Assembly (NCBI RefSeq): GCF_024223415.1
Contig: NZ_CP100500.1
Length of the DNA: 64,000 nucleotides
DNA from: Escherichia coli
Lineage (GTDB): Bacteria; Pseudomonadota; Gammaproteobacteria; Enterobacterales; Enterobacteriaceae
Reading direction: 5' to 3' (one strand)
The notes beneath the pieces are model-generated. The model did not search any database. It saw only the letters and a list, made by a program, of their open reading frames with translations, and was not told the DNA's origin. Positions 60,144 to 63,883 of the stretch are shown piece after piece (the first letter of the stretch is position 1; each line of letters opens with the position of its first letter). Made by a program: the position numbers and the translations under genes.

Positions 60144-60416
60144 ATGTCTCATACAATCCGTGATAAACAGAAACTGAAAGCGCGTGCCAGTAAGATTCAG
60201 GGCCAGGTCGTGGCGCTCAAGAAAATGCTCGACGAGCCGCACGAATGCGCTGCAGTTTTACAACAGATTGCTGCTATCCGTGGCGCGGTAAACGGTCTGA
60301 TGCGGGAAGTGATTAAAGGTCATCTGACGGAACACATCGTTCACCAGGGGGATGAGCTAAAACGTGAAGAAGATCTGGATGTCGTTCTGAAGGTGCTGGA
60401 TTCATATATCAAATAA
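60144..60416 (+). CDS. rcnR: Metal-responsive repressor RcnR (CsoR/RcnR family)
   Basis: 90 aa; divergent from rcnA. Confidence 0.95.
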
Positions 60417-60505: not shown

Positions 60506-60557
60506 AACCAAACGACTCGGGGTGCCCTTCTGCGTGAAGGCTGAGAAATACCCGTAT
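60506..60557 (+). promoter_or_regulatory. thiM TPP riboswitch aptamer, 5' portion only, truncated by insertion
   Basis: AACCAAACGACTCGGGGTGCCCTTCTGCGTGAAGGCTGAGAAATACCCGTAT matches the E. coli thiM leader as recalled, then diverges (expected CACCTGATCTGG..., found TTTCTCATTTAG...). Confidence 0.75.
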
Positions 60558-60745
60558 TTTCTCATTTAGTGTTTTTTGTGGTTCGGGGTTGTTCGTGGTT
60601 GTTTGTGTATGTGTTTGATATATATTGAATTATTGTGTTTTCTTGTTTGTTGTTGTTCGTCGTTGTTCGTAGAGCTTCAACAAAATGTGTGGTCAGTTGT
60701 GTGGTCAGTTTTTTGAGGCTGGAGGACTGAAAAGAGGATCTGATA

Positions 60746-61969
60746 GTGGGAAAAGCACTAAACAAACTGAGCGATTCGACGTTAAAAAAATTGGCGTCTG
60801 TCCAAGCAGAAAAAGAGCGTTTTTACTCCGACGGGGGCGGGCTGGAGATTAAACACTCAAAGGGCGGCAAATTAACCTGGTATTTCCGGTACCGAACGGG
60901 AGGCCGTGAGGTTGCCGCAGAGCGGTTAAAGCTGGGGGCTTACCCTGAATTGTCGCTGAAAGCTGCAAGGGAAAAACGCGCACAGTGCCGGGCATGGCTG
61001 GCTGAGGGTAAAAACCCCCGTTATGAGTTGTGCGCCACAGTACAGGAAGCGCTAAAACCCGTTACGGTGAAGGAGGCGATTAACTACTGGCTGGATGAAT
61101 ATGCGAAGGATAACCGCAAAGACTACATAAAGCTGGTGCAACGTATGGATAAGCACATCATTTGCCATATAGGGGCAATTCCCCTTGATAAGTGTGATAC
61201 AAGGCAGTGGATCGCATGTTTTGACCGTGTACGAAAAAAAGCACCAGTAGCAGCAGGGCACGTCATGCAAACCTGCAAACAGGCGCTAAAGTTCTGCCGC
61301 AGGAGACGCTACGCGTTCAGTAATGCCCTGGACGATTTGATCGTCAGCGATGTGGGTAAGAGAGCAGAAATTCGCGAGAGGGTGCACAGCAACAGCGAAT
61401 TAAAGGAAATTTTACGCGCTATTGATGGTGATGTGTTCGCGCCTTACTACAGCGCGTTAATGCGCTTGCTGATTGTGTTCGGGTGCAGAACGGCAGAGGT
61501 CAGACTTTCAGAGATCAAAGAATGGGATCTGAAAGAAATGTTGTGGACAGTGCCAAAAGAGCATAGCAAAACGAAGGTAACGATATTCAGGCCAATCCCC
61601 GATGGCATTTTGCCGTTCATTCAGAAGCTGGTGGAGCAGAACCGGCATACAGGGTTATTACTCGGAGAACTGAAAAAAGATACCACGGTAGCGCAATATG
61701 GGCGAAATGCGCATAAGCGGCTTAACCAGGAACACTGGACGCTGCATGACTTTCGCCACACGTTTACAACGATGCTGAACGATTTAGGTGTCGATCCGCA
61801 TATCGTGGAGCACATCACAGCGCATCAGATGCCCGGTCAGCAAAAAACCTATAACCATTCACGCTATTTACAGGCGAAGCGAGACGCTCTGAATCTGTGG
61901 GTTGAGCGCCTCGATGTGCTGGCTGGAAATCATGAAAATATTGTCATATTAAGGGCTGAAAATGAATAA
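60746..61969 (+). CDS. int: Tyrosine recombinase, P4/CP4-57-type integrase
   Basis: 407 aa; C-terminal catalytic motifs (HDFRHTF...HITAH...Y); GTG start. Confidence 0.9.
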   Translation: MGKALNKLSDSTLKKLASVQAEKERFYSDGGGLEIKHSKGGKLTWYFRYRTGGREVAAERLKLGAYPELSLKAAREKRAQCRAWLAEGKNPRYELCATVQEALKPVTVKEAINYWLDEYAKDNRKDYIKLVQRMDKHIICHIGAIPLDKCDTRQWIACFDRVRKKAPVAAGHVMQTCKQALKFCRRRRYAFSNALDDLIVSDVGKRAEIRERVHSNSELKEILRAIDGDVFAPYYSALMRLLIVFGCRTAEVRLSEIKEWDLKEMLWTVPKEHSKTKVTIFRPIPDGILPFIQKLVEQNRHTGLLLGELKKDTTVAQYGRNAHKRLNQEHWTLHDFRHTFTTMLNDLGVDPHIVEHITAHQMPGQQKTYNHSRYLQAKRDALNLWVERLDVLAGNHENIVILRAENE

Positions 61970-62747
61970 TCTGGGCCGTGTATATCATACGCTGCCAATG
62001 GCAGCTAAAAAAATGGGATGTACTGTAGAGGATATTCTACATTTTGGTGCAACTAACCGACTTGAAATATGTGCGTATATTGATGATATTGAACAGAGAA
62101 AAGATTATTGCACTTTTAATGTGTTTTTTGATAATGAAGATAGCGAGAATAGTTTTTCTAAAACTATAAATAAATATAATTCCATATTTACTGACATGTA
62201 TGAAATATCATTGTTTAATTATAATGATGAGTTTTGTGTTGATGATGAGCGTATGGTTATTGAAGGTTTGTATGCTAATCATATGAAAGGCTTTTTTGCA
62301 ATACCATCTGAATTTCTTGTCGAAGTTGAATTGTCAAGTGCCTGTGAAATCATAAATCTATCGCCTCGTTATTTATATACACCGAAAGGTTATGGTGATT
62401 ATATTCGGTTGGATAGTATAGAAGGTCTTTCTATTCCAGAAAACAGGCTCGTGATATTCGATAGTGAGATATCGGGTTTTAATTATCAAAAGAAACCTAA
62501 ATATGCCGGAGGTGAAAGAGAATCACCTAAAACCAGAGCTAAAAAAGCCGAGATAATACCTGCTCTCATAAAACTGATCCCTGAGATGCAAGATGTGGAT
62601 TTGGAGGATACACCCGTATCCAAAATTGCAGAAATGATAGAGGTTATTGCTGCACAAAGAGGGGTTGAGTTACCTAGCACTCACAGGCAGACATGGCAGA
62701 AATATTTAGGGCGTGATGCTGGTGACGTTCCAAAACGTCAAAAGTGA
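61962..62747 (+). CDS. Hypothetical protein, low GC, start overlaps the integrase stop
   Basis: 261-aa ORF overlapping the int stop (ATGAATAA); AT-rich codon usage; no family recognised. Confidence 0.6.
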   Translation: MNNLGRVYHTLPMAAKKMGCTVEDILHFGATNRLEICAYIDDIEQRKDYCTFNVFFDNEDSENSFSKTINKYNSIFTDMYEISLFNYNDEFCVDDERMVIEGLYANHMKGFFAIPSEFLVEVELSSACEIINLSPRYLYTPKGYGDYIRLDSIEGLSIPENRLVIFDSEISGFNYQKKPKYAGGERESPKTRAKKAEIIPALIKLIPEMQDVDLEDTPVSKIAEMIEVIAAQRGVELPSTHRQTWQKYLGRDAGDVPKRQK

Positions 62748-62837
62748 TATCACGTACAGATAGTGTGATATCACACAAACGGCATTTTACCACCGCCTAG
62801 AATCGTCCTCGTTCGGCAACGTTCGAGGACGTTTTTT

Positions 62838-63062
62838 ATGAATCAAAATACACAATTTCAATCACTATCAGATCGCGTAATCCGTGAGGATGAATGCCGT
62901 AAGTTAACAGGAGTGTGCCGCACTACACGCTACGAACTGGAGAAAAAAGGGAGCTTTCCGTCTCGCCGTAATCTTGGTGGGCGTTCTGTAGGTTGGCTGC
63001 TGTCCGAGGTTATGGAATGGGTTAAAAGCCGGGATCGCATTAATTCAGGCAAGGCAGCGTAA
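62838..63062 (+). CDS. alpA: AlpA-family phage transcriptional regulator
   Basis: 74 aa; HTH region RKLTGVCRTTRYELEKKGSFPSRRNLGGRSVGWLLSEVMEWV typical of AlpA. Confidence 0.85.
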   Translation: MNQNTQFQSLSDRVIREDECRKLTGVCRTTRYELEKKGSFPSRRNLGGRSVGWLLSEVMEWVKSRDRINSGKAA

Positions 63063-63200
63063 AGGGGAGTATATGACACATAAAACAAAGGCGACCGGGG
63101 GCGGTCGCCAATGGGAAAACACTAAACATAAGCCCGGCCATCATAGCGATTTGCTGGCTGGTGGGCAATGTGTCCAGTGTGGTGGCTTGCTGGTGGATTG

Positions 63201-63428: not shown

Positions 63429-63485
63429 GATACTGCCCTGTAAAGCAATGCGCCGTAGTACCTCACACCACGGCGCTGATAGTGA

Positions 63486-63683: not shown

Positions 63684-63751
63684 TGATGCACCTCACTTAA
63701 ATGGACTTTATGGGCGCACACAATACAGCAAAAAAAGTGAGAAGTTAAGTA

Positions 63752-63790
63752 TTGACATGTGCGCACACATGATTCTAATCTGTGCGCACA
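63752..63790 (+). promoter_or_regulatory. Sigma-70-type promoter (TTGACA, 16 nt, TCTAAT) overlapped by two TGTGCGCACA palindromic operators
   Basis: -35 at 63752-63757, -10 at 63774-63779; perfect 10-bp palindromes at 63758-63767 and 63781-63790; related half-sites at ~63711-63720 and 63911-63920. Confidence 0.55.
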
Positions 63791-63883
63791 GTTTGGGTTG
63801 CATTGCTCAAATTAAGCAACGCCCCGCAGTGCTCGCAACACATGCAGGGCGTCTAACCAAACCGTTAATAGGAGTAACGATTA

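Follow-up and report, generated by a model that had tools for sequence, protein, structure and literature searches.

The roughly 100 bp that precede alpA in a 64,000-nucleotide stretch of Escherichia coli DNA (contig NZ_CP100500.1, hereafter the window) may form a composite control region for this gene, a reading that we regard as an even call. Judged from its genes, the locus is probably the left end of a phage satellite of the phage-inducible chromosomal island (PICI) type, in which int, orf261 and alpA follow one another. The region would combine two operators read by Orf261, a promoter gated by them, a hairpin that sequesters the alpA Shine-Dalgarno (SD) sequence and, in the loop of this hairpin, a box of the type recognized by AlpA. 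Comparison across lineages indicates that both the palindromes proposed as operators and the hairpin are under selection and lie within the alpA control region. The features are as follows (a strand is given where one applies):

60581-60595 and 60655-60669: copies of GTTCG-N5-GTTCG in the left attachment-site arm (attL).
60746-61969: int, encoding a P4-type tyrosine integrase.
61962-62747, plus strand: orf261, an open reading frame (ORF) for 261 amino acids from an uncharacterized family, overlapping the int stop by 8 nt; its product is the candidate for the regulator that acts on the palindromes.
62744-62753: O1, a 10-bp palindrome, GTGATATCAC, with the family consensus GTGAWWTCAC; it includes the orf261 TGA stop (62745-62747).
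62764-62775: O2, a 12-bp palindrome, TGTGATATCACA (= tGTGATATCACa), with the 10-bp core GTGATATCAC at 62765-62774.
62775-62803, plus strand: spacer of fixed length without conserved sequence (identity 0.33).
62798-62803, plus strand: hexamer TAGAAT, -10-like and directly next to the hairpin (yAnaAT in the family), position-invariant across lineages; putative promoter element.
62804-62811, plus strand: 5' arm of the hairpin, anti-SD, CGTCCTCG (= CGUCCUCG).
62811-62825: doubled box GTTCG-N5-GTTCG in the loop and adjacent bases, with the same 10-bp-periodic repeat as the att arms; probable DNA site for AlpA as a recombination directionality factor (RDF).
62824-62831, plus strand: 3' arm of the hairpin, CGAGGACG, holding the alpA SD GAGGA (62825-62829).
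62832-62837, plus strand: run of six T (T6) abutting the alpA ATG (62838), which with the hairpin resembles an intrinsic terminator here.
62838-63062, plus strand: alpA, 74 amino acids, Phage_AlpA family (Pfam PF05930, E = 4.4e-16).

The sequence-only reading had reported two palindromes of the GTGATATCAC type about 21 bp apart, and this was borne out. Both are perfect over 10 bp (12 bp for O2), their centers are 21 bp apart, and they are the only two exact copies of GTGATATCAC in the window. With up to three mismatches allowed the paired pattern still occurred nowhere else in the window, and 100 shuffles yielded no match. Scanning viral contigs with this pattern provided a first view of the pair in several PICI-like lineages whose spacers are unrelated, a view that is biased because the motif itself was the query. 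The unbiased set consists of loci gathered through the Orf261 protein and comprises 20 distinct lineages of nine or more genera, whose proteins share as little as about 31% identity. They derive from Escherichia, Klebsiella, Pluralibacter, Kosakonia, Erwinia, Yersinia, Serratia and metagenomes; homologues were also present among Salmonella and Citrobacter proteins. Scanning genome contigs with an Orf261 profile gave only three loci, and L115 (Methylococcaceae), where 39 N-terminal residues matched, was left out.

In every one of the 20 lineages int and orf261 were followed by the arrangement GTGAWWTCAC-N11-GTGAWWTCAC. The spacer between the boxes measured 11 nt in 17 lineages, 10 nt in one and 12 nt in two, keeping the centers 20-22 bp apart throughout, and the pair started either inside the orf261 stop codon or 0-16 nt past it. 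Such a pair occurs once per island. Mean pairwise identity reached 0.91 per box, against 0.35 in the spacer between O1 and O2 and 0.33 in the spacer between O2 and the hairpin. Because the boxes are invariant while the spacers are randomized, and because we found no convincing covariation that would mark an RNA stem, the palindromes are best read as a pair of protein operators, in which the GTGA..TCAC sequence and not its pairing would be preserved. The earlier suggestion of operator control thus fits the palindromes, whose spacing is also fixed. The consensus site of CRP is TGTGA-N6-TCACA; it was not matched here: both arms, TGTGA and TCACA, occur, yet with 2 nt between them instead of 6. A CRP site and a lambda-CI-like operator were both rejected on geometry.

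The hairpin that follows differs in detail from the one first described. Its stem has 8 bp (62804-62811 with 62824-62831) and not 7 bp, with six G-C pairs and, further in, a CG/CG pair capped by a GCAA loop, and the T run does not end at the alpA ribosome-binding site, since GAGGA lies inside the 3' arm and T6 abuts the ATG. Computed in a 116-nt context, the fold energy gave z = -4.7 relative to shuffles and was better than 200 out of 200 of them. Seventeen lineages fitted one structure with 94% of cells paired and with compensatory changes in six of the nine pairs, values that none of 500 shuffles reached. GAGG was found inside the 3' arm in all 17 aligned lineages, and stability ranged from -10 to -20 kcal/mol across lineages. 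This comparative evidence indicates that the hairpin is a genuine conserved RNA structure that sequesters the SD.

In the window the G+C-rich stem followed by U6 has the form of an intrinsic terminator, which a consensus terminator scan missed because the loop of 12 nt exceeds the limit of 8 set by the tool. A T run of at least five is present in about 11 of the 20 lineages and absent in about nine; the U run is missing and the stem kept in L113, L116/L136, L119, L120, L123, L128, L130, L133, L135 and L138. Since the SD always lies in the 3' arm and the T run is found in only about half of the lineages, the conserved function of the hairpin would be occlusion of the ribosome-binding site, and in this island it should also terminate. 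Of the attenuation proposed from the sequence, then, the terminator-like form holds for this island, but the universal feature is SD sequestration. Either way, read-through from int-orf261 would not be expected to yield AlpA. The covariance models of Rfam 15 gave no match with E <= 1 between positions 60400 and 64000.

In every lineage with the hairpin, the distance from the end of O2 to the hairpin's first base is 28 nt, or 29 nt in the window and two others, the sequence of this spacer being randomized; RNAalifold detected no conserved RNA structure in it. The hexamer at its end reads CAGAAT, CACAAT, AATAAT, CAAAAT, CAATAT and similar in other lineages, with T at position 6 in 20 out of 20 and A at position 2 in about 15. 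Islands in which a DUF6387 gene replaces orf261 carry TTGCAC-N16-TAAGAT or TTGCTT-N17-AAAAAT, with the hexamer at the same position and a correctly spaced TTGC -35. No -35 element was found in the orf261-type regions.

The box in the hairpin loop links this region to the ends of the island. [quoted passage not shown] Because repeats of 10-bp periodicity at att sites and promoters are typical of RDFs of the regulator type with a winged helix-turn-helix (wHTH) fold, the GTTCG repeats are probably AlpA boxes; alternatively they could be arm-type sites of Int. If they are AlpA boxes, a binding assay with AlpA would probably light up the hairpin loop and not the palindromes. In most other lineages the loop is the reverse complement, CGAAC-N5-YGAAC, the inter-arm segment being inverted. 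This segment (62812-62823 in the window) is TTCGGCAACGTT in E. coli islands of the window type and AACnnnnnCGAA in most others (e.g. L005 and L121), with the stem arms keeping their orientation, as if the loop had been flipped by recombination between inverted arms. The Yersinia island has arm repeats of GTATAT and a loop of GTTTAC-N4-GTATAC, and its AlpA carries CRMHRY in place of the CRTTRY of all others, a difference in the recognition helix that goes along with that of the repeats. In the classical PICI type CGAAC-N5-CGAAC lies about 135 nt upstream of alpA. The literature that we found describes no precedent for such an RDF-type site in the loop of an SD-sequestering hairpin.

The att core GAAATACCCGTAT is located at 60545-60557 in the window and at 28553-28565 in L001, a relative described below. 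Both att arms (window 60545-60709; L001 28420-28565) contain the 10-bp-periodic GTTCG repeats followed by a tandem 12-mer (TGTGTGGTCAGT twice, 60686-60709 in the window). This 12-mer varies between integrase lineages and is probably an arm-type site of Int.

These elements can be assembled into the following mechanism. The two operators share one face of the DNA, and a dimeric protein with sequence specificity would bind them, for which Orf261 is the best candidate. If the hexamer is a -10 element, the fixed spacing puts O2 near -40 and O1 near -61 of a promoter devoid of a -35. These are classical positions for an activator, and the bound protein could then gate alpA transcription as an activator of the class-II/class-I type; repression by occlusion, with the protein covering the -35 region, is equally possible. 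In read-through transcripts from int-orf261 the anti-SD arm would pair with the alpA SD ahead of T6, leaving them terminated, translationally silent or both. If the hexamer is a -10, transcription would start about 7 nt downstream of it, at the end of the 5' arm, and the resulting mRNA would lack the anti-SD and could be translated. The doubled AlpA-type box in the loop DNA would finally provide autoregulation.

Several points weigh against this mechanism. In four to five lineages the key A is missing from position 2 of the hexamer. The hexamer also pairs with the U/A-U nucleotides that follow the stem, so it can also be explained as an A/U extension of the stem. A position weight matrix scan found no consistently strong sigma-70 promoter in the orf261-type regions, and for this reason these regions may contain no promoter at all. 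A start inside the hairpin would put the AlpA boxes at about +1 to +16, which suggests repression, whereas the published autoregulation, in another PICI type, is positive. The co-occurrence of orf261 and the operators is confounded by adjacency, the site being 0-16 nt from the stop codon. Finally, a palindrome of 10 bp is short for a classical helix-turn-helix dimer.

A first alternative, which we consider unlikely, is that alpA has no promoter of its own and is expressed only by read-through from int-orf261. The hairpin with T6 would then be a terminator or attenuator overcome by antitermination, for instance through AlpA itself, as in Pseudomonas, or through a factor of the helper phage, and the protein bound at the palindromes would be a roadblock. 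The terminator form of the hairpin in this island and the lack of a predicted strong sigma-70 promoter agree with such a scheme, and the AlpA of Pseudomonas aeruginosa acts as a processive antiterminator, carrying transcription past intrinsic terminators (PMC7969949; PMC9371919). However, the roughly nine of 20 lineages without T run keep the SD-sequestering stem, so that termination is not the conserved function, and a read-through RNA would still have an occluded SD. A roadblock would also leave the fixed spacing of 28-29 nt unexplained. The Pseudomonas-type AlpA element GGGACG-N5-GGTA was not found in the island with up to one mismatch, the four matches in the window all falling in host genes.

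As to the protein that reads the palindromes in the mechanism proposed here, the pair tracks the upstream gene orf261 and neither AlpA nor the ribbon-helix-helix (RHH) protein encoded nearby. We infer from this strict co-occurrence and from the wHTH-like N-terminus of Orf261 that this protein is the best candidate. Its N-terminal part is predicted to be an Xis/MerR-like wHTH and its C-terminal part a helical domain; no Pfam or PHROG family matched it. Identity within the family is 0.70 in the N-terminal part, 0.42 in the middle and 0.64 in the C-terminal part, the middle region being hypervariable in both length and sequence. The N-terminal motif was kept in all 18 of the family sequences retrieved. 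A profile of the C-terminal domain was searched against 1.84 billion representatives, in a search for domain swaps that could link a domain with the operator. The family formed 63 clusters at 50% identity, the helical domain was terminal in 63 out of 63, and no domain-swapped relative was seen among the 18 sequences retrieved.

It could also be that the operators are real and Orf261 a mere neighbor, the reader being either a regulator of the helper phage that activates alpA directly or a host factor conserved in Enterobacterales. We hold this to be unlikely, although it has points in its favor. Helper phages induce alpA transcription in PICIs that lack orf261 (PMC6092414), and operators at about -40 and -61 of a promoter without -35 would suit an activator. 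Adjacency alone could account for the co-occurrence, and arrays of GTGATATCAC that look like operators beside RHH genes in unrelated phage contigs suggest that other protein families can read this sequence. The pair was nevertheless seen in no locus without orf261 and in none of the other alpA architectures from the same hosts, and one would expect a host or helper factor to act on islands without orf261 as well. To our knowledge, no known E. coli transcription factor consensus matches the palindromes. Moreover, the enterobacterial phage contigs that we scanned contained no paired site, save one in L010 that resembles a terminator.

The arrays just mentioned consist of four to six GTGATATCAC boxes in unrelated viral contigs of high G+C content (L044 5560-5665, L042 660-770, L065 6920-7010, L026 12720-12800 and L055 140-240). 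In L044/L049 and L042 the array lies directly upstream of a small RHH gene (MSTQVAIRFPDDLVAAID...), and the 10-mer seems to serve as an RHH operator in these other phages. A further arrangement, TTGACA-N17-TATAGT followed by GTGATATCAC-N12-GTGATATCAC, occurs in L015, L059, L012 and about 45 related IMG/VR contigs of about 55 kb (e.g. L016 5100-5260). In this phage family the pair is followed by four to eight further ATGATATCAC repeats ahead of a gene with the ribosome-binding site AAGGAGGTG. L010, a prophage-like contig, has GTGATATCAC-N11-GTGATATCAC with a T run at 2165-2215, 33 nt past an ORF6N/P22_AR_C antirepressor gene; this pair could be either a terminator that arose by chance or a connection with phage antirepressors.

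Much less probable is that the two palindromes act as RNA and form a stem of 11 bp at the 3' terminus of the int-orf261 transcript, serving as a stabilizer, processing site or terminator. The minimum-free-energy fold does pair both boxes, four lineages have GTGAAATCAC...GTGATTTCAC, a change that keeps pairing, and the pair of L010 with its T run resembles a terminator after the antirepressor gene. We examined the stem in an alignment of 18 lineages, in which four of the ten palindrome pairs never vary. Nine of the ten stem positions show no two-sided change although their surroundings are randomized, and the only pair that varies on both sides is U-A in ten lineages, A-U in four and broken (U.U or A.A) in four. 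L120 has three mismatches in the stem, yet its first box is still a perfect palindrome, GTGAATTCAC. The covariation score observed was reached by 21 out of 500 shuffles, while the stringent level of the tool is at most 5 out of 500, which even related sequences free of constraint can attain; the downstream hairpin in the same lineages shows compensatory changes in six of nine pairs and a score attained by none of the 500. In addition, the palindromes of the islands have no U run after them, and by a rough estimate chance alone should produce hairpins with this stem sequence in the viral collection, so that L010 would be accounted for. On the strength of the 18-lineage alignment we rejected an RNA stem as the main explanation.

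The remaining candidates, AlpA and the RHH (YlcI/DUF3950) protein, had been put forward from the sequence as binders of the palindromes and are highly improbable in this role: the pair is absent beside a nearly identical AlpA, or an identical RHH protein, where the upstream gene is another one. What speaks for them is that AlpA autoregulates in other PICIs and that the RHH protein of the island resembles RHH genes that follow GTGATATCAC arrays in the high-G+C phage contigs (tblastn E of about 7e-4, in a small database). Against AlpA, DUF6387-type islands with an AlpA about 92% identical lack the palindromes, L140 keeps a perfect pair (without SD hairpin) beside a different AlpA subtype, and the doubled GTTCG box is a better AlpA site; AlpA was rejected on the first two grounds. 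Against the RHH protein, it has operators of its own, which change along with the RHH variant (TGTGCGCACA here; GTGAATACCA, GTGTTTAACAC, GTGGGCCACAC, GTGGAATCCAC, GGTATATACC and GGTACGTACC in other islands), whereas the boxes upstream of alpA stay unchanged across islands with different variants, and the identical protein WP_000094457 is encoded both in L001, where the pair is present, and in L004, where it is absent. The RHH protein was rejected on its co-varying operators and on this identical protein without the pair. The pair was also absent from the alpA upstream regions of the DUF6387-type and classical-type islands that we examined.

The proposed control region may be compared with several known systems. 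Temperate-phage repressors bind cooperative operator pairs; in lambda, CI bound at OR1/OR2 represses PR and activates PRM. The likeness lies in two dyad sites about two helical turns apart with the proximal one near -40 of a weak promoter, the class-II position; in contrast, the sites here span 10-12 bp and not 17 bp, the half-sites are arranged differently, there is no divergent promoter and the binder is a candidate only. P4 Vis, 186 Apl and P2 Cox are small dual-function wHTH RDFs that oligomerize on short direct repeats of about 10-bp periodicity at att sites and promoters. RdfS is likewise a dual-function wHTH RDF of this kind (PMC11963761). Such a pattern is matched by the GTTCG repeats, which occur in attL and attR as well as in the alpA leader. 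They differ in that AlpA binding is putative here, the repeats possibly being Int arm-type sites, and in their placement in the loop of an SD hairpin. The P. aeruginosa module combines an AlpA binding element in the promoter, between -35 and -10, with a downstream intrinsic terminator (PMC7969949; PMC9371919). It thus shares with our region an AlpA-family protein and an intrinsic-terminator-like hairpin within one short control region, but here the terminator precedes alpA itself, GGGACG-N5-GGTA is absent and the conserved feature of the hairpin is SD occlusion.

Gram-negative PICIs have AlpA as their master activator; as known since 2018, the helper phage switches on alpA transcription, and AlpA boosts its own expression (PMC6092414; PMC11773190). 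The alpA promoter of EcCICFT073 and EcCIMP1 resembles the present one in that alpA follows int and encodes a helper-induced, autoregulated master activator; the published Gram-negative PICIs that we examined differ in belonging to the type without orf261 (L081-like). The inducer of alpA was reported as unidentified in 2018, when it was also unclear whether Gram-negative PICIs have a global repressor comparable to Stl (PMC6092414). In the PICI literature that we searched, neither cis elements of the alpA promoter nor a sensing mechanism was described.

Our wider proposal, which is tentative and on balance doubtful, is that Orf261 is an island-encoded sensor and master regulator in a subset of Gram-negative PICIs and a functional analogue of Stl, the master repressor of staphylococcal pathogenicity islands (SaPIs). 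The N- and C-terminal domains would hold Orf261 on the operator pair at the alpA promoter, and the hypervariable middle would recognize a protein of the helper phage and so set helper specificity. The SD hairpin with its AlpA box would act as a second lock that makes alpA expression dependent on one exact start. Like Stl in the SaPIs and PICIs of Gram-positive cocci, Orf261 would be a DNA-binding protein of the island, encoded beside the switch gene and built of conserved and variable parts, a likeness that is functional. Unlike Stl, with which no relationship in sequence or fold was detected, Orf261 is encoded by a gene co-transcribed with int and not divergent from it.

In the window, the host genes yehA, rcnB, rcnA and rcnR come first and the island starts after rcnR, 3.3 kb of it lying inside the window (int, alpA, the RHH gene and the start of an Icd-like gene). 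Its left end reads int, orf261, alpA, two small minus-strand genes, one of which encodes the YlcI/DUF3950 RHH-like protein, and the start of the Icd-like gene. AlpA scored 58.9 bits against the PF05930 hidden Markov model, whose curated cut-off is 21, and its PHROG annotation is 'excisionase and transcriptional regulator'. L001, a relative with 95% identity that also sits between rcnR and thiM, carries genes for RepA helicase, SSB, PerC, capsid, protease, portal, HNH, TerS and TerL, and by this gene content it is a capsid-forming PICI. The int-orf261-alpA module is also present in the classical PICI of O157:H7 at cspD-clpS (L139), which had been considered as a possible EcCIEDL933; nothing is claimed here about that published prototype. 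At its start, orf261 shares 8 nt with the end of int here (61962-61969) and 4 nt (ATGA) in most relatives, an overlap that suggests translational coupling and constitutive co-expression with the integrase. On the minus strand, strong terminator-like hairpins follow the 75-amino-acid ORF and the RHH gene, at 63090-63109 and 63450-63476. The first of them, GGCGACCGCCCCCGGTCGCC, lies just past the stop codon of alpA, where transcription arriving from either direction could be terminated.

The divergent region between the RHH and Icd-like genes (63709-63793) contains TGTGCGCACA at 63758-63767 and 63781-63790 and a degenerate copy near 63711-63720. These operators overlap a TTGACA-N16-TCTAAT promoter (TTGACA at 63753-63758), and their sequence changes in step with the RHH variant in seven other islands, as is characteristic of a classic immunity-specificity module. 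A conserved stem-loop (63814-63860), ACGCCCCGCA...TGCAGGGCGT, followed by TAACCA, lies in the leader of the Icd-like gene, with compensating differences in relatives (GAAGCCCCG...CGGGGCTTC and GAAACCCGG...CCGGGCTTC). Its fold energy is unexceptional (z = -1.7) and it has no Rfam match, but it is reminiscent of immunity RNAs of the P1 c4 / P4 CI type, which are said to occur in PICIs (PMC10111431). In the Icd-like leader of a related island (L003 3409-3481, minus strand) there is a weak sub-threshold Rfam match to the antitoxin RNA SymR, which scored 33.6 bits where the gathering score is 61 (E = 0.005).

Taken one by one, the operator pair, the SD-sequestering or terminator hairpin and the autoregulatory RDF site are well-known parts. 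What is new is their deeply conserved arrangement, the strict tie to an uncharacterized protein family with the look of a sensor-regulator, and the att-arm repeat inside a regulatory hairpin. Should the palindromes be the ordinary autoregulatory site of an accessory gene, the finding would be of local interest only. Gram-negative PICIs spread virulence and defense genes and are being engineered as delivery vehicles. For them this locus offers a defined and conserved 100-bp region, a candidate regulator gene and a candidate AlpA box shared with the att arms, and the induction of alpA by helper phages thereby becomes directly testable for islands of the orf261 type.

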